A DNA stretch of 64,000 nt from Nitrospirota bacterium (GTDB lineage: Bacteria; Nitrospirota; Nitrospiria; Nitrospirales; Nitrospiraceae): contig CAVPBK010000004.1 in NCBI GenBank assembly GCA_963701855.1, forward strand, positions 224,001 through 288,000, written 5' to 3'. This document shows positions 35,681 through 49,789 of the stretch, piece after piece. The notes under the pieces are model-generated. The model ran no database searches, had not been told where the DNA came from, and worked only from the letters and a program-made list of their open reading frames with translations. The position numbers and the translations under genes were made by a program. Every line of letters begins with the position of its first letter. The first letter of the stretch is position 1.

Positions 35681-37770
35681 TTAGGCTGTCTTCTTTTCGA
35701 GTAACACCAGCACCTGCTTGCATACGTTTTCCACAGTGAAGCCATATTCGTGCATGACCACCGGCCCGGGAGCCGACGCGCCAAACCGGTCCACCCCGAT
35801 CACGTCTCCCTGGTCCCCCACGTACCGGTGCCACCCCTGCGTACGCCCGCTTCGACCGCGAGCCGCGCATGGACCGACGGGGGTAACACCGAGTCGCGAT
35901 AGTCCCGAGATTGGGCCTCAAACAATTCCCAACTCGGCATCGACACGAGGCGCACGGCGATGTGCTGCTCCTGCAACGCCTGTTGCGCCGCCACGATGAG
36001 GCCGACCTCCGATCCGCTGGCGATCAAAATCACGTGCGGGTTGCCCTGCGGCGCATCGGCCAGGATGTATGCCCCGCGGCGGAGACCGTCCGCCGACGCA
36101 AATTGCGACCGGTTGAGCGTCGGCACCGATTCTGCCGCGTCAGGATCAAGGCCACCGGCCGGTCCCGCGTTTCGATCGCCACCCGCCATGCCACCGCCGT
36201 CTCGTTGGCGTCGCCAGGACGGATGACCATCAGCTGCGGAATCGCCCGCAGACTGGCGACCTGCTCCACGGCTTGATGGGTCGGGCCGTCCTCACCCAGT
36301 GCAAGGCTGTCATGCGTGAACACGTACACCACCTGGATTCCCATCAACGCGGCGAGTCGAATCGGCGGGCGCATGTAATCGGAGAAGGTCAGAAACGTGG
36401 CGCCGAACGGGATGATGCCTCCATGTGTGGCCAGGCCGTTCAAGATCGCCCCCATCGCATGTTCGCGAACCCCAAACTGCAGATTGCGGCCGGCATAACT
36501 CCAGCCGCCGCCGGCCGACCCTTGCAGATCACCAACCGCCATGGCGGAGTTCTCAAAGTTGCCTGCATCGTTCAGTTCCGTATACGTGGATGGATTCAAG
36601 TCGGCCGAGCCGCCGATTAGGCCGGGGAGGTTCTGACTGATCGCTTCCATTATTTTTCCCGACGCGACGCGGGTGGCCAGGCCTTTGGCATCGGCGGGGA
36701 ATTGCGGAATGTTCGCGTCCCAGCCTGGTGGCAGTTCTCCCGCGATGAGGAGGCGCAGTTCGCGGGCGAGTTCCGGATACTGCTGTTCGTATGCCGCAAA
36801 CTTCTCATTCCATTCTGCTTCTGCTTGCCGACCACGGTGAACGGCTTGGCGACAATGCTGCTCGACTGCGTCTGGCACAAGAAATGGTGGTTCGACGGGC
36901 CACCCAAGGTTCTCCTTCGTCAGCTGTGACTTCTTCCTCGCCCAGCGGGGAGCCATGCGCCGCAAAGGTGTCCTGCTTATGGGGCGACCCATAACCGATA
37001 TGCGTCCGCACCAGGATCAGTGAGGGGCGCTCCGTCTCCTGCCGCGCCGCGCGGATGGCGCCGTCGATGGCGTCCACGTCGTTGCCATCATCGATCGATT
37101 GCGTGTGCCAGCCATACGCCGCGAACCGTTGCGCACGGTCTTCGGTGAAGGTCAACTGCGTCGAGGCGGCGAGCGTGATGTGATTGTCATCGTAGAGATA
37201 AATCAGCTTGCCCAGTTTCAAGTGCCCGGCGAGCGAGGCGGCTTCCGCCGCGACGCCTTCCATCAAATCGCCGTCGCTGACCAGCCCGTAGGTGAAATGA
37301 TGAATGATCTCAAACCCTGGCCGATTGTAGCGGGCGGCCAGATACGCTTCGGCAATGGCCAGGCCAACTCCATTCCCAAATCCCTGACCGAGCGGACCAG
37401 TGGTGACTTCTACCCCGGGGGTCACCCCGCGCTCGGGATGACCCGGCGTGAAGCTGCCCCACTGGCGAAACTGTTTGATTTGTTCGAGCGGCAGATCATA
37501 GCCCGTGAGATGCAGCAAGCTGTACAGGAGCATCGATCCGTGGCCGGCTGACAAGACAAATCGGTCCCGATTGAACCAGTGCGGATTCGTCGGATTATGT
37601 TGAAGAAATCTGGTCCACAACACATACGCCATCGGGGCGGCACCCAACGGCAGACCCGGGTGGCCGCTCTTGGCTTTTTCCACCGCATCCACCGACAGGA
37701 ACCGAATCGTGTTGATCGACAGCTGATCCAATTGCGCAGGGGTAAGACTTGTTTCGCCTATGGTATTCAT
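35681..37770 (-). pseudogene. tkt: Transketolase with three frameshifts (real or assembly errors)
   Basis: [49 protein letters not shown]. The frame changes near 36927, 36128 and 35841. The reconstructed end ...[16 protein letters not shown] stops at 35681. Confidence 0.93.
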
Positions 37771-43496: not shown

Positions 43497-43916
<420 letters not shown>

Positions 43917-45065: not shown

Positions 45066-45352
45066 TCAGCAGATTCATCTGAACCAGAGCGTGGATCGAC
45101 GATCGACCGTTGTGGCTATTCAGGGAGATTCCGATGCAACTGGCAGACACCCCCGGTAAGGGGGATCGTATTGAGGCGCAGGTGAACCCTGAAAATCATG
45201 CGCTGTCGATTCGCTCAGCCCGAGGAACTGAGTAGGCATTGTTCTAGTGAACATCTGCAGGTGAGCGACGCGAGAATTTGCCGCAGCCGTCTTTTAGTGC
45301 TTAGCCAAGTGCAGGTTTCATGTTTTTCATTTTTTTTAACAGGGAGATTCAC

Positions 45353-45628
45353 ATGAGCAGATTCATGATTGTCGCAATGGCATTTCTATTCGTGTTCGTT
45401 GGAATGCAGCAGCTTGCCCAAGCCGATGAGGTGAAGGCCGCTGTTGAAGATGCGAAGGGAAAAGCGAACGCGAACGCTGAGAAGGCCAAAGGGGAAGCGA
45501 AAGCCCTCACGGAAGAAGCCCAAGGGAATAAGGTGAAAGGCGAGATGGAACGGGCGAAAGGACAAACCAAAGCAGCCGGAAAGCGAATTAAAGGCGAAGC
45601 GAAAGAACTGAAAGCCAAGACAGAGTAA
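45353..45628 (+). CDS. Exported Ala/Lys/Glu-rich (CsbD/LEA-like) protein
   Basis: AGGGAG RBS; signal peptide followed by repeated AKG(E/K/Q)AK units. Confidence 0.7.
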   Translation: MSRFMIVAMAFLFVFVGMQQLAQADEVKAAVEDAKGKANANAEKAKGEAKALTEEAQGNKVKGEMERAKGQTKAAGKRIKGEAKELKAKTE

Positions 45629-45876
45629 ATAGGCCGACCGGGTGGGGGCTAATTGACCAGATTGTTTCCTATCTTCTCGCCAGCATGATTAGGTGTGTTC
45701 GGTCGTCCCTCGTTCAGCGATCTCACATATCTCGGAACAAGGGGTCATAGACCTGCGAACACCGCTGAGGGATGGGGTTGCCAGGCGAGTTCCGAGTTCC
45801 ATGTGGAGGGGTTAGTAAAAAACAAAACTCGACTTGTCCAAAATTAGGTGGGGCCGTACAGGCATCGAGAGAAAGG

Positions 45877-45906
45877 TGGCTGGCCGACTCTCATGAGTCG
45901 ACCAGC
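45877..45906 (-). terminator. Stem-loop immediately downstream of the precursor-peptide gene
   Basis: GGCTGGCCGACTC-TCAT-GAGTCGACCAGCC, followed on the minus strand by ACCTTTCTCTC. Confidence 0.5.
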
Positions 45907-45918
45907 CCCGAGGTTTAT

Positions 45919-46062
45919 CTAGCGATGGCCATTGGAATGGCCAAACAAACGGCCAAACGCGTTCCCATGATGACCGCCAGAAGCCTTTGCAGTGATGTCC
46001 CGCAGCAACTCGTGCGTCACGAGCGCTGGCTGGACATACGCCTCTTTCTTCTCTGTGTTCAT
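45919..46062 (-). CDS. Putative RiPP precursor peptide with a lasso-type leader, 47 aa (not in the ORF track)
   Basis: MNTEKKEAYVQPALVTHELLRDITA-KASGGHHGNAFGRLFGHSNGHR*. Carries YxxPxL and a Thr at -2. Its AAGGAGG RBS overlaps the end of the PqqD gene. Confidence 0.78.
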   Translation of the reverse strand: MNTEKKEAYVQPALVTHELLRDITAKASGGHHGNAFGRLFGHSNGHR

Positions 46063-46068
46063 TCTTCC

Positions 46069-46410
46069 TCACCTCCTTTCCTGTTGAAGTAGTTTCTCCT
46101 GGACCAGATGGTTGACCAGGGAAACAAGATCGTCCCGGGCTTGCTCGGGGGCGACATCAAAGCGGTCGCTCAGTACCGCATGAATGTCGCTGATGGTGTT
46201 GTGGCCGGTACAGTGCTCCCAAATGACGCTGCCCAACCGGTTCAGGGTGTAGTACCGCCCGGTGCTCAGGTTCAACAGCACCGTCTCGCCATCCAGGCTC
46301 GTGCCCTGCACATCGGGGCTGGGCCGGAGGATGATTCGACCCAGCATCGTGCGGTCGATGGCAGGCTCTGTTGCGAATAGTGGTGGAGTCGTCCGCAGTG
46401 GGTCCGCCAT
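46069..46410 (-). CDS. Stand-alone PqqD-family RiPP recognition element
   Basis: LDGETVLLNLSTGRYYTLNRLGSVIWE...I...L..RFDV..EQARDDL..LV..L.QEKLL. GAGGAGG RBS. Confidence 0.9.
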   Translation of the reverse strand: MADPLRTTPPLFATEPAIDRTMLGRIILRPSPDVQGTSLDGETVLLNLSTGRYYTLNRLGSVIWEHCTGHNTISDIHAVLSDRFDVAPEQARDDLVSLVNHLVQEKLLQQERR

Positions 46411-46755
46411 GGGCCTGTCCTCCTCGGTCTGTTGTTCTATGACTTGCGCTATGGCGACAACATTGCGTTGGCCAGTCCAAATTCCCTTAACCACCACAAT
46501 CATCGGTAGAATCTGACTGGGCTCAACTCTGCTCAAAAAATATACTCTGCCGGAACTACCCCCCTAGAGTTCGATACAATAAGGGTTAGCAGGACCAATA
46601 TACTGGTCACTTTTGACCACTATCAGATCTGCGCGAATTGGTTCTGATATAGGGCTGGAGCCAGGTGTACTACGACGTTAGAAATGAGCGCAGGATGGGG
46701 CAGCCATGAGCCGAGGAAGCAGCCGGAAACGAAATGCCACTAATGGAACGGCAGG

Positions 46756-46963
46756 CTAGCAAGCTGCAGAAAAGCCATTTTGCACAGCAGAACTTCAATG
46801 GCCTGCACGTCTGTGACAAGAGGAGATCCCCCTCCGCAGGATGCTCAAAAAGTATGTCCAGCAAGGCCGCAGCACGCGAAGAGGCAATGCGTACTCTTTC
46901 GGTACGTGGAGCCTCTTAAGGAATCGAGAACGCCGCCGGTGGACGTTTTCAGCATCCTGCTAG
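46756..46963. repeat. MITE/REP-like element with terminal IRs and CTAG ends
   Basis: GCAGGATGCTCAAAA (46836) and TTTTCAGCATCCTGC-TAG (46946-46963). A second outer left end CTAGCAAGCTGCAGAAAA lies at 46756. Confidence 0.75.
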
Positions 46964-46996
46964 GAGCCTGTCACAAGTCAGCGAGGTAGGACAGTC

Positions 46997-47460
46997 ATGA
47001 GACGAGCCATGATTACGCTGATCTGGCTTATCACGGCTGCCCTGTTACTCCTTGTTTCACAAGTTGCCTTTGCGAACAGCTTCTCCGCCCCTTGTCTCGG
47101 ACCTCGACGGCGAGACCATCGAAGTCCTCCACAACCAACACCCTGACCGCATCCGCCTCAGCGGCATCGATTGCCCAGAGAAAGGCCGGGCCTACGGGAA
47201 ACGAGCCAAGCAGGCCGCGTCTGAGCTTGTGTTTGGCAAAGAAATCACGCTTCAGACTCACGGCTTCGACAAATACGGGCGTACCCTTGCCGATGTGCTT
47301 TGACCCGATGGCACAAACGTCAACCACTCGCTAGTTAAAGATGGCTGGTGCTGGTGGAATCGGAAGTATGCGCCAGAGAATACGGTGCTAGAAGGGCTGG
47401 AGAAAAACGCACGAGAAGCCAAGAAAGGGTTGTGGGCGGATCCGAATCCCTTGCTCCACC
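46997..47460 (+). pseudogene. Thermonuclease (SNase-like) pseudogene, nearly full length
   Basis: Signal peptide, a frameshift, then DGETIEV...IRLSGIDCPE...DKYGRTLADVL*PDGTNVNHSLVKDGW...AREAKKGLWADPNP. Confidence 0.88.
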
Positions 47461-48364: not shown

Positions 48365-49789
48365 TTATCTGGGAGCAACCAGGGGCCACCTGTTGAAACT
48401 CTTGATGGCATAGCTGAACCAAGACCCGTTGCTCGCACCCCCCCGTTCGCTATTGGTCGGATGTTCTGGCTTCAACGAAAGTTCCTTGGCTCGACAGGCA
48501 GCATCTTTAAAACGTGGACTCATTAGAGCAATACGGCGGTATACGGTTACCGCTTCTGCTATCTGCCCGACTGATTCGAGGGTCCGTGCGAGAAAATACT
48601 GGACATCGATAACCTCTTCCTGAGATGCCGACTGATCGTTCAAGGCAGCGTGGAACGCCCGAATCGCGGCCCCATGGTCTCCCGCAGACCTGTAGCAGAG
48701 TCCAATCTGCGCCTGAGCTTTCAGTTGATAGGACGGACTCTTTCCCGCCAGCTCGAGCATCTCGATAGCCTCTGTCCATTGGCCTTCCTTCCTCATGGCT
48801 ACTCCCTTTGCATAGAGGAGGGGCTCGAGGGTGCCGACCGAATGCGTGGCTGTGAGTTCCGGAGATGGACTTGCCTGCCTCCACTGCGGTGAGCTGGGTT
48901 GCAGAGGGGCAGCATCGATCTCGCTAGGATCTTCCGGAACATTGGCCCAAACACACAAGCTTTCTCGTGCCGCAAGCGGTAGAATTTTGCTTTTACTTCG
49001 CTCGAAAGCGGCCTGAGCGACGAGCTTGGATGTAATGATCGGAGCCTGCTCTGCAAAGCCATAGGTCAACGCAATATTGGACACCTGATTGATGAGACGA
49101 GGATTACCTCTCGTCAAACGATGCACCAAGGCACAGGCTTTATTCGTAAACAATGAGGGATGTCCGCCGGCAACGTTTAACCGGTGACGAATGTAATGCC
49201 CCGTCTCAGCCTCTGAAAGCGGTTCTAAGTGATAGTCGACGACAACCCGTTGGGCAAACTGAATCATGTCGATCCGTTGCAGTAATATGTGAAGGTCCGG
49301 CTGGCCGGAAAGGATGATCTGCAGCTTCAACGCTTTCCCATCGTTTAAATTGGACAGAAGCCGCAGTTCTTCGAGCAGTTCGGTACCAAGACTCTGGGCT
49401 TCATCAATAAGAAGAATGACCCGTCGGTGCTGTTTAGATTCCTGAATCAGAAACTCCGAGAAGACATGATAGGCCTCAACCGGGTCCAGCTGCTTCTGGC
49501 TCAACCCGAGGGAAAGCAGAACCCAGGGAAGGAGATGTTCAATGTCATAGCGCGCGTTCGTGACAAGACCGATCGAATGCTTCTCCCTATGCTCTGAAAT
49601 AAGTTTCTGCAGGAGGGACGTCTTGCCCATCCCTGGATCGCCGGTGAGCACCATAAACGGCGCCTCGTTGATAAGTCCATACTCCAAGCTGCTGTAGGCC
49701 GCGCGATGCGTGGAGCCGGGATACAGAAAGTCGCTATCCGGCAGGAGCGCGAAAGGTTTGGTCCGAAGATTGTAAACCGACTCGTACAT
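48365..49789 (-). CDS. ExeA/GspA-like AAA ATPase with a C-terminal TPR region
   Basis: YNLRTKPFALLPD, Walker A GDPGMGKT, Walker B LLIDEAQ, LSGQPDL and GNPRLIN. TPR-like helices at the C-terminus. Confidence 0.92.
   Translation of the reverse strand: MYESVYNLRTKPFALLPDSDFLYPGSTHRAAYSSLEYGLINEAPFMVLTGDPGMGKTSLLQKLISEHREKHSIGLVTNARYDIEHLLPWVLLSLGLSQKQLDPVEAYHVFSEFLIQESKQHRRVILLIDEAQSLGTELLEELRLLSNLNDGKALKLQIILSGQPDLHILLQRIDMIQFAQRVVVDYHLEPLSEAETGHYIRHRLNVAGGHPSLFTNKACALVHRLTRGNPRLINQVSNIALTYGFAEQAPIITSKLVAQAAFERSKSKILPLAARESLCVWANVPEDPSEIDAAPLQPSSPQWRQASPSPELTATHSVGTLEPLLYAKGVAMRKEGQWTEAIEMLELAGKSPSYQLKAQAQIGLCYRSAGDHGAAIRAFHAALNDQSASQEEVIDVQYFLARTLESVGQIAEAVTVYRRIALMSPRFKDAACRAKELSLKPEHPTNSERGGASNGSWFSYAIKSFNRWPLVAPR

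Follow-up and report, generated by a model that had tools for sequence, protein, structure and literature searches.

The described systems closest to the locus analyzed here are the lasso peptides and their phosphorylated relatives. The locus lies in a 64,000-nucleotide window of a Nitrospirota genome (C4:224001-288000; the window is the whole stretch of DNA that was analyzed, and positions given hereafter are window positions on the minus strand unless stated otherwise) and comprises a stand-alone RiPP (peptide made by ribosomes and modified post-translationally) recognition element (RRE) gene of the PqqD family, followed by a small precursor gene. From the lasso system the window shares the leader motif YxxPxL, the Thr at leader position -2 and the RRE; the lasso B2 peptidase is shared by two related clusters on contig C3 of the same genome and is absent from the window; an Asn-synthase-like cyclase is present in neither, and the window core has no acceptor Asp/Glu at positions 7-9. 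We consider it rather probable that the window carries an orphan duplicated cassette of a cyclase-less, lasso-derived RiPP system, whose peptide would be matured in trans to a linear product phosphorylated on Ser3 of its core.

The text of Duan et al. 2023 (PMC10368454) describes the bsf lasso cluster of Bradymonas sediminis (genes K, B1, B2, N, C and D), in which the kinase BsfK, which needs B1 and is speeded up by it, phosphorylates Ser3 of the core; its motif reads H148-G163-G166-G168-K169-S170-D186-D187. The C3 kinase holds H188, G203, G206, G208, K209, T210, D226 and D227, a spacing identical to that of the published motif. Going by that text, the two systems have in common the K, B1, B2, N and D genes, a Ser3 substrate (predicted in the present case), the kinase pattern H...G..G.GK[ST]...DD and a YxxPxL leader. 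They differ in that bsf has the cyclase BsfC, a lasso product and Ile as the penultimate leader residue, whereas the Nitrospiraceae clusters have Thr at -2 and lack both a cyclase and a conserved acidic acceptor.

A linear counterpart is provided by the linear polyphosphorylated peptides (LPP; lppA-K-B-S-D-N) of Bacillota, to which they are stated to be restricted in the main text of Popov et al. (Nat Commun 2026, PMC13381572), the text on which all LPP comparisons here are based. The LPP leader follows the motif YxxPxVLxHQxIxFETxxS and is removed after Thr(-1) by an SpI-like peptidase; the product is a linear peptide in which LppK polyphosphorylates Ser3. Likenesses between the two systems include a conserved YxxP leader, variable C-termini, a conserved Ser three residues past the cleavage site (a predicted site in the Nitrospiraceae case) and adjoining polysaccharide genes. 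The C3 clusters, and not the window, also share the LPP core set of a free-standing RRE, a kinase resembling HprK, an NTP transferase, an MsbA-like exporter and no cyclase, the NTP transferases being likened by name, with no Pfam accession in the text of PMC13381572. In our own comparison, the Nitrospiraceae leader Y-V-Q-P-A-L-V-T-H-E-L-L-R-D-I-T-A-x-x-S agrees with the LPP consensus A1 at 8 of 10 positions in register (Y, P, H and T, Q/E, I/L and two hydrophobic positions). It has D and I in place of F and E, and its Ser comes one residue later, a shift to be expected if B2 cuts after Thr+1 and SpI directly after Thr, which would make the Ser core position 3 both ways.

The two systems part at the peptidase: LPP uses the SpI/SipW-like LppS, with its cut after Thr(-1), whereas the Nitrospiraceae clusters have Thr at -2 and a B2 cysteine peptidase of the lasso kind; the five C3 cluster genes (PqqD, kinase, PF14907, Transglut_core3/B2 and ABC) gave no SpI or signal-peptidase Pfam match. 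LPP cores are longer as well, 45 residues in the case studied in that text vs 22 in the window. By sequence, LppB is farther from the window RRE than are the lasso B1 proteins, as the matches to solved RREs were PbaB1 (9x90) at E 3e-8, TbiB1 at 2.5e-4, TfuB1 at 1.3e-3 and LppB (9x8z) at 8.8e-3. Because the RRE is nearer to lasso B1 than to LppB, and because LPP are given as restricted to Bacillota, the Nitrospiraceae system looks like a separate, B2-based route to the LPP kind of product. No description of the precursor family in Nitrospira came up in the literature searched, which took in text of PMC13381572, in whose supplementary tables non-Bacillota clusters could be listed; the WasteFams preprint was set aside as unrelated, since it deals with a PQQ-like cluster.

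Paeninodin and pseudomycoidin, which are phosphorylated or phosphoglycosylated lassos, likewise have an HPr-kinase homologue and a nucleotidyltransferase as tailoring enzymes, and the nucleotidyltransferase of pseudomycoidin attaches a hexose to the phosphate; as described in the review PMC8498205, their kinases act on a C-terminal Ser and the products are lassos, whereas the window peptide ends in Arg. The HPr-rel-A system (TIGR04352 HprK_rel_A, TIGR04353 PqqD_rel_X) likewise consists of an HprK-related kinase and a PqqD-family chaperone, but its cut-offs are far from reached by the C3 kinase (58.3 bits vs 200) and by the window RRE (15.1 bits, E 0.034, vs 35).

The RRE gene, the precursor gene and their signals

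The features of the locus are given below, the ribosome binding sites (RBS) having been read from the sequence.

46419..46425, minus strand: GAGGAGG RBS of the RRE gene, 8 nt 5' of ATG 46410
46069..46410, minus strand: stand-alone RRE (PqqD-family) gene, 113 aa plus stop, ATG at 46410 and TGA at 46071-46069
46072..46078, minus strand: AAGGAGG RBS of the precursor gene, within the final RRE codons (E-R-R-stop)
45988..46062, minus strand: leader peptide, residues 1-25 MNTEKKEAYVQPALVTHELLRDITA, with Y9-x-x-P12-x-L14 as the RRE-binding motif and Thr24 at -2
45919..45987, minus strand: predicted core, residues 26-47 KASGGHHGNAFGRLFGHSNGHR, plus stop; cleavage after Ala25 predicted by the lasso B2 rule
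45981-45979, minus strand: Ser28, core residue 3, predicted phosphorylation site
45878..45907, minus strand: stem-loop 3' of the precursor gene, of terminator or attenuator type, 13 pairs (9 G-C), then ACCTTTCTCT
46597..46626, minus strand: weak and uncertain sigma-70-like promoter match 5' of the RRE gene, 9/12 hexamer matches

In a profile search the RRE gene product matched PF05402 (PqqD) at E 2.2e-18 (66.8 bits, cut-off 23.4), and its best NCBIfam match was the lasso PqqD chaperone NF033536 at 59.4 bits, below the cut-off of 80. The RRE genes of relatives also have a GAGGAGG stretch 5' of the Met, which reads E-E-D-R-P-M when translated through. A longer RRE start at TTG 46536 (155 aa) was discarded, since GAGGAGG precedes ATG 46410 and the relatives align from that Met. 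The AAGGAGG site of the precursor gene is conserved too, because most aligned RREs terminate in QQERR.

The precursor open reading frame (ORF), 46062-45919 on the minus strand, has 47 codons (product MNTEKKEAYVQPALVTHELLRDITAKASGGHHGNAFGRLFGHSNGHR); 6 nt separate the RRE TGA from its ATG at 46062, so that the start falls 7 nt beyond the final base of the RRE gene. A preliminary description of this DNA had claimed a 47-aa ORF after a PqqD/RRE gene, with an AAGGAGG RBS and a downstream hairpin, all of which are present; so are the YxxPxL motif (as YVQPAL) and the penultimate Thr (Thr24-Ala25) that it had reported for the leader. Its statement that a core free of Asp and Glu could form no lasso macrolactam holds for all 22 residues after Ala25. 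Five of these 22 residues are His, and the C-terminal end of the core is H-x-x-G-H-R. The hairpin (45907-45878) folds at -30.6 kcal/mol (z -4.0), a value that none of 200 shuffles equalled. The promoter scan found one site vs 0.6 expected from shuffles, and an RNA-library contig extends to 46523.

Library models do not recognise the window precursor ORF: it has no Pfam match, and an NCBIfam 'rhodolasso' match was rejected as non-significant (E 0.13, 12 bits vs a cut-off of 30). A model of the complex of the window RRE with the precursor scored 0.53, the best of 3 controls scoring 0.00, which is a weak pass on a mark reached by 116/157 solved complexes and 2/215 mismatches, where a pass at <=0.60 counts as weak. 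In this model the partner had a predicted local distance difference test (pLDDT) value of 54 and the runs shared 94% of contacts; the pass may reflect likeness to B1-leader complexes that have already been solved.

Conservation and distribution of the precursor family

Searched against a large protein collection, 66 of 66 candidate small proteins (33-66 residues) were matched at E <= 1.3e-4. It can be seen from the alignment of these 66 proteins that K6, Y9, P12, H17, L20, R21, D22, I23 and T24 are invariant in the leader, that 90% or more of the sequences share E4, K5, E7, V10, L14, V15, E18, L19, A25, S28 and G29, and that the sequence beyond residue 29 is hypervariable. The proposal in the preliminary description of a RiPP-type precursor with a lasso-type leader is borne out by this near-invariant leader and hypervariable core in the relatives. 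A protein at least 90% identical to the window precursor is present on 2 contigs.

Scanning of one genome per prokaryote species yielded 59 loci, 57 of them from genomes named Nitrospira, Nitrospiraceae, Nitrospirales or Nitrospirota, and a pattern search of these loci together with the window's genome returned 111 intact precursors. Those with a leader ending in Thr-Ala, termed here the TA type, number 86 and have 85 distinct DNA sequences across the conserved 21 codons. Pairwise differences per site among these 85 sequences are 0.20, 0.15 and 0.49 at codon positions 1, 2 and 3, and the invariant Pro, Arg, Thr and Ser are each encoded by three to five different codons. Such a codon pattern is the signature of selection on the protein, and because the leader stays near-invariant through synonymous codon changes, the small ORF is a real gene.

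Of 201 genomes searched in the taxonomic family of the window, 60 carry the precursor; the count is 55 of 150 for high-quality genomes, 10 of 39 for genera and 5 of 30 for other genomes of the window's own genus, so that the distribution is patchy. Counted from a cut with Thr at -2, core position 3 is Ser in 85 of the 86 TA-type precursors and position 4 is Gly in 74, and Asp/Glu at positions 7-9, where the lasso acceptor lies, is found in 28 only. Position 1, which is Lys in the window, varies through the family (G, K, T, Q, R and others). His makes up 5% of the residues over TA-type cores; relatives from metagenomes share the core pattern GN..FG.LFG..H.HR, with ends that include HSHGHR, HGHGHGHR and HSHRHR. 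A stem-loop 3' of the precursor is a family trait, as a fold of <= -25 kcal/mol occurs within 70 nt 3' of the stop for 98 of 108 precursors vs 50 of 524 random 70-nt stretches of the same loci.

The clusters on contig C3 and the duplicated cassette

Two further PqqD genes and two of B2 type turned up in whole-genome scans, and all four lie on contig C3 (loci L010, C3:18000-36000, and L011, C3:34000-52000). The gene order of the C3 clusters is PqqD/RRE, precursor, HPr-kinase-like, NTP_transf_5, B2 peptidase and MsbA-like ABC exporter, with a UDP-glucose dehydrogenase gene 3' of the exporter. Each C3 precursor is 84% identical to the window precursor over 45 aligned residues. The nucleotidyltransferase matches PF14907 (NTP_transf_5) at E 4.8e-63 and the B2 peptidase matches NF033537 at 47.3 bits, above the cut-off of 33; tblastn gave no homologue of the kinase, the nucleotidyltransferase or B2 elsewhere in the genome than on C3. 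The likeness of the window to these clusters has the following extent.

45853..46429, minus strand: duplicated 'RRE + precursor + hairpin' cassette, 577 bp, by blastn to both C3 clusters

Identity by blastn is 84.4% over 582 nt with C3:27867-28444 and 83.9% over 570 nt with C3:40212-40778, and the cassette extends over exactly the RBS, the RRE gene, the precursor and the hairpin. Because this similarity is confined to 45853-46429, the remainder of the window giving no blastn similarity to the C3 clusters, the window copy is, judged by its sequence, a duplicated 5' piece of a cluster that exists elsewhere in the genome and no stand-alone system. The window RRE and its C3 paralogue are identical at 83 of 113 residues. 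Between window and C3 paralogue, the ratio of non-synonymous to synonymous substitution rates (dN/dS) is 0.42 in the RRE and 0.35 in the leader; in the core it is 1.55, a value drawn from 6 changes only, and the excess of non-synonymous changes there would fit a diversifying core, and also relaxed constraint.

The C3 clusters stand in inverted orientation within a large inverted duplication (93-100% protein identity). In copy A the UDP-glucose dehydrogenase is shortened (376 vs 433 aa) and a secretin is in two pieces (382 + 364 vs 785 aa); the gene breaks of this copy are either pseudogenes or assembly indels. A fourth precursor copy, at C12:43555-43787 (L071:5556-5788), is 79% identical to that of the window, and its RBS, leader and hairpin are recognisable.

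Cluster synteny and absence of a cyclase

Synteny was assessed over the 36 loci in which 6.5 kb or more of sequence follows the first TA-type precursor. The kinase and B2 are present in all 36, the ABC exporter and PqqD in 35 each and the nucleotidyltransferase in 33, and the three loci without the nucleotidyltransferase at threshold have more distant NTP_transf_5-like matches. An Asn-synthase homologue was found in none of these 36 loci.

In agreement with the earlier claim that no B2 peptidase, lasso cyclase or radical SAM gene is present in the window, genome profile scans gave no match to PF13471 (B2), PF00733 (Asn-synthase type) or PF04055 (radical SAM) there, and all matches in the genome lie outside it: two on C3 and one on C6 for PF13471; C4:28571-29689, C1 and C5 for PF00733; and 23 for PF04055, of which the sole one on C4 is at 335065-335550. 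The sole full-length Asn synthase of the genome, C4:28571-29689, is 195 kb from the window and of AsnB type (TIGR01536 at 420 bits, cut-off 267; lasso cyclase NF033535 at 175 bits, cut-off 525). With 97% completeness of the genome, it is unlikely that a cyclase was missed. Five other carrier genomes were scanned with the general Asn_synthase model, and one of the five has no full-length Asn synthase at all. In two single-chromosome carrier genomes all Asn-synthase matches are hundreds of kb from the cluster, and some other Nitrospiraceae genomes have several Asn-synthase homologues each.

An Asn-synthase-like tblastn match near the cluster of locus L067 proved to be the housekeeping gene purF beside purL and was rejected as a cyclase. 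The same locus, from a complete Nitrospira genome, has a fatty-acid-hydroxylase-family gene (PF04116, E 1.9e-24; L067:11853-12893) that separates the kinase gene from the nucleotidyltransferase gene and may encode an additional tailoring enzyme.

After the exporter, 16 of the 59 loci carry a pair of ATP-grasp RiPP-maturase-like genes (TIGR04187-like, both under the cut-off at E 2e-34 and 2e-14) together with another PqqD gene and, in many cases, another HPr-kinase-like gene (L057:15518-19600, L024, L029, L034, L038, L042, L051-L054, L056, L058, L063, L064, L067 and L070). These loci carry 25 precursors of a sister subtype, with a leader ending in Thr-Gly and cores rich in Lys, Ser, Thr, Asp and Glu, similar in this respect to graspetides. 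One leader family seems, therefore, to serve two maturation routes, by kinase/nucleotidyltransferase and by ATP-grasp.

Integrity of the window copy and RNA-library contigs

Both ORFs, both RBSs and the hairpin are intact in the window cassette, and the nine invariant leader residues and Ser28 are kept. The window RRE is off consensus at 3 of 49 strongly conserved columns, the range in 35 aligned relatives being 0-8.

RNA-library contigs from four runs in three studies match the cassette with 0-1 differences. Three of them (45920-46162, 45934-46127 and 45927-46107) cover the precursor gene completely or up to its last few codons and reach into the RRE gene, and the other (46080-46523) holds the RRE gene and 113 nt upstream; DNA may occur in such libraries, and the contigs are no proof of transcription, strand or translation. 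Within 45700-46700, the stretches 45700-45903 and 46550-46700 have no RNA-library contigs, and contigs cannot show transcript ends. In run X17, two RNA-library contigs match the precursor leader and diverge at 45977 and 45992, which suggests that precursors of relatives, with the same leader and other cores, occur in the same RNA library. DNA runs from soil, rhizosphere and mine metagenomes contain 0.33-0.71 of the sampled words of the region and carry no weight in this assessment.

Genomic surroundings of the cassette

Just upstream of the cassette, at 46756-46970, lies a dispersed repeat of about 200 bp with 122 blastn matches, its own place included; 83 matches, again with its own place, are at least 100 nt long, and 11 of 15 contigs carry it. 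A second repeat, 47077-47457 (34 blastn matches on 8 contigs, own place included), overlies an 83-codon ORF (47052-47303) whose product matches one half of a staphylococcal-nuclease domain (PF00565, E 2e-10). Convergent with the cassette, on the plus strand at 45320-45628, is a 102-residue ORF with a hydrophobic N-terminus, Lys/Ala/Glu-rich repeats and no Pfam match, of which contig C7 has an 86%-identical stretch. A 474-residue AAA_22 ATPase with C-terminal TPR repeats (48365-49789, minus strand) lies 2 kb from the cassette and has a 77%-identical stretch on C11; no link between it and the cassette was found.

Long ORFs are unusually few between 40 and 52 kb of the window. A transketolase is present as two overlapping ORFs (36033-37770; N-terminal domain and remainder), and 43500-43799 holds an isolated piece, 100 residues long, of the N-terminal domain of a TPP enzyme; both cases are frameshifts or assembly indels that affect genes of housekeeping type.

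Discussion

For the orphan cassette and its C3 relatives we infer the following course of maturation. The RRE would bind the leader via YxxPxL, the kinase, assisted by the RRE, would phosphorylate Ser28 (core residue 3), and B2 would cleave after Ala25, with Thr24 at -2. The nucleotidyltransferase may then extend the phosphate, for example with a sugar, and the ABC pump would export a linear, cationic, His/Gly-rich phosphopeptide of 22 residues. As enzymes are missing from the window copy, its maturation would fall in trans to those of C3.

The preliminary description had left three options, namely a different RiPP class matured in trans, an unmodified RRE-bound peptide, or the remnant of a larger cluster. 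Maturation in trans as a different class fits best, although the class is not wholly unknown, as LPP and bsf are analogues. The remnant idea stands to the extent that the cassette is a duplicated 5' piece of an existing cluster, and fails in so far as it meant a decayed ordinary lasso cluster, a cyclase being absent from all 36 well-flanked loci. Enzymes elsewhere in the genome, which the same description had thought worth seeking, are found in the two C3 clusters as B2, HPr-kinase-like protein, nucleotidyltransferase and exporter, and the pattern that it expected of such a system, a conserved leader with a variable core beside RRE genes, recurs with PqqD in 35 of the 36 loci.

Several observations weigh against a functional cassette matured in trans to a phosphopeptide. 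Phosphorylation, the cleavage site and export rest on analogy with the described systems. The extension of the phosphate with a sugar is the weakest step, as deletion of the LPP nucleotidyltransferase had no detectable effect according to the text of PMC13381572. The C3 kinase is below curated cut-offs not only for TIGR04352, as given above, but also for PF07475 (26.3 vs 33.3 bits), and the ABC exporter of C3 copy A is broken (504 aa + second frame vs 608 aa). The window cassette itself is solitary in a repeat-rich, gene-poor stretch, the off-consensus residues of its RRE are C81S, R90Q and G106K, and its core differs from the paralogue by 5 non-synonymous changes and 1 synonymous change, which relaxed constraint also fits. 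The solo copy on C12 is dead, with TAG in place of the Leu19 codon and about 20 nt of the RRE gene left upstream, and the RNA-library contigs carry the limit stated with them.

Much of this would also be expected if the window cassette were a non-functional, decaying duplicate, intact by chance in a repeat-rich region. Only 577 bp were copied, with no enzyme genes, next to an element with over a hundred blastn matches; the C12 precursor has lost its RRE and gained a stop in the leader; and in another metagenome-assembled genome a precursor (L017) stands beside a PqqD match of 40 residues only, the full cluster being on another contig (L029). The three RRE substitutions at strongly conserved columns and the changes in the core point the same way. 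We nevertheless regard decay as unlikely, since at 16% DNA divergence the ORFs, the Shine-Dalgarno sites and the 13-bp hairpin are intact, the nine invariant leader residues and Ser28 are retained, dN/dS is well below one for the RRE (0.42) and the leader (0.35), RNA-library contigs from three studies match with 0-1 differences, and a protein at least 90% identical occurs on 2 contigs. The peptide might alternatively act without the C3 enzymes, unmodified or RRE-bound, as a His-rich metal binder or as a regulator titrating the RRE. That the cassette carries its own RRE and no enzyme would suit such a role, as would the His-rich end of its core and the similar ends of its relatives, which may have a metal-binding capacity; yet the leader and Ser3 are as in the enzyme-linked copies, which points to the same processing, the low His content of TA-type cores as a whole speaks against family-wide metal binding, and no RRE-precursor pair working without enzymes came up in the literature consulted. 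We give this alternative a small chance.

Were the product a true lasso peptide, its cyclase would have to lie elsewhere or be too divergent to detect. The lasso-type leader, RRE and B2, the nearest solved RRE being PbaB1 and not LppB, and the several Asn-synthase homologues of some other Nitrospiraceae genomes would be in keeping with this, but the window core is free of Asp and Glu, an acidic residue at positions 7-9 is confined to 28 of 86 cores, core position 1 is Lys here and variable in the family, none of the 36 loci has an Asn-synthase homologue, the single full-length match of the genome is of AsnB type, and one carrier genome has no full-length Asn synthase; the probability of a lasso is very low. 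Least credible of all, to the point of being negligible, is a peptide cross-linked by ATP-grasp ligases in the manner of graspetides. It would draw on the 16 of 59 loci in which two TIGR04187-like genes, a second PqqD and precursors of the same leader family occur together; however, neither gene has a homologue in the window genome (with tblastn, only PqqD and kinase genes were matched at E <= 1e-3), the precursors adjoining those genes are the separate Thr-Gly subtype, unlike the acid-free window core, and with no Asp or Glu the cross-link is chemically impossible for that core.

The cyclase-less, phosphorylated route matured in trans thus named as the preferred reading can be placed in a wider one, which we advance tentatively and hold to be possible, with the odds tilted against it. 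In it, Nitrospiraceae would possess a lineage-specific RiPP platform of one near-invariant leader family with two routes (B2/kinase/nucleotidyltransferase, without a cyclase, to linear Ser3-phosphorylated, possibly phosphoglycosylated, peptides, and ATP-grasp in some species), dispersed cassettes like that of the window would add new cores in trans, a His-rich subfamily, with the window peptide among its members, would perhaps be exported and bind metal, and the loss of the cyclase would be independent of the Bacillota LPP.

Overall, if the preferred reading is true, linear phosphorylated lasso-derived peptides would not be limited to Bacillota and would have a separate origin in a lineage that is Gram-negative and of central importance for nitrification, where the classical B2 takes the role of the signal peptidase; the family Nitrospiraceae includes the main nitrite oxidisers. 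If the platform reading also holds, a loss of the cyclase independent of LPP would make linear phosphopeptides a recurrent outcome of lasso machinery. The precursor family brings together about 80 different natural cores behind a single leader, and for these the reading predicts a phosphorylated Ser as core residue 3 and a cut after Thr-Ala. The family would furthermore be a natural case of substrate cassettes dispersed from their enzymes, and genome-mining tools that require adjacent enzymes miss such precursors.

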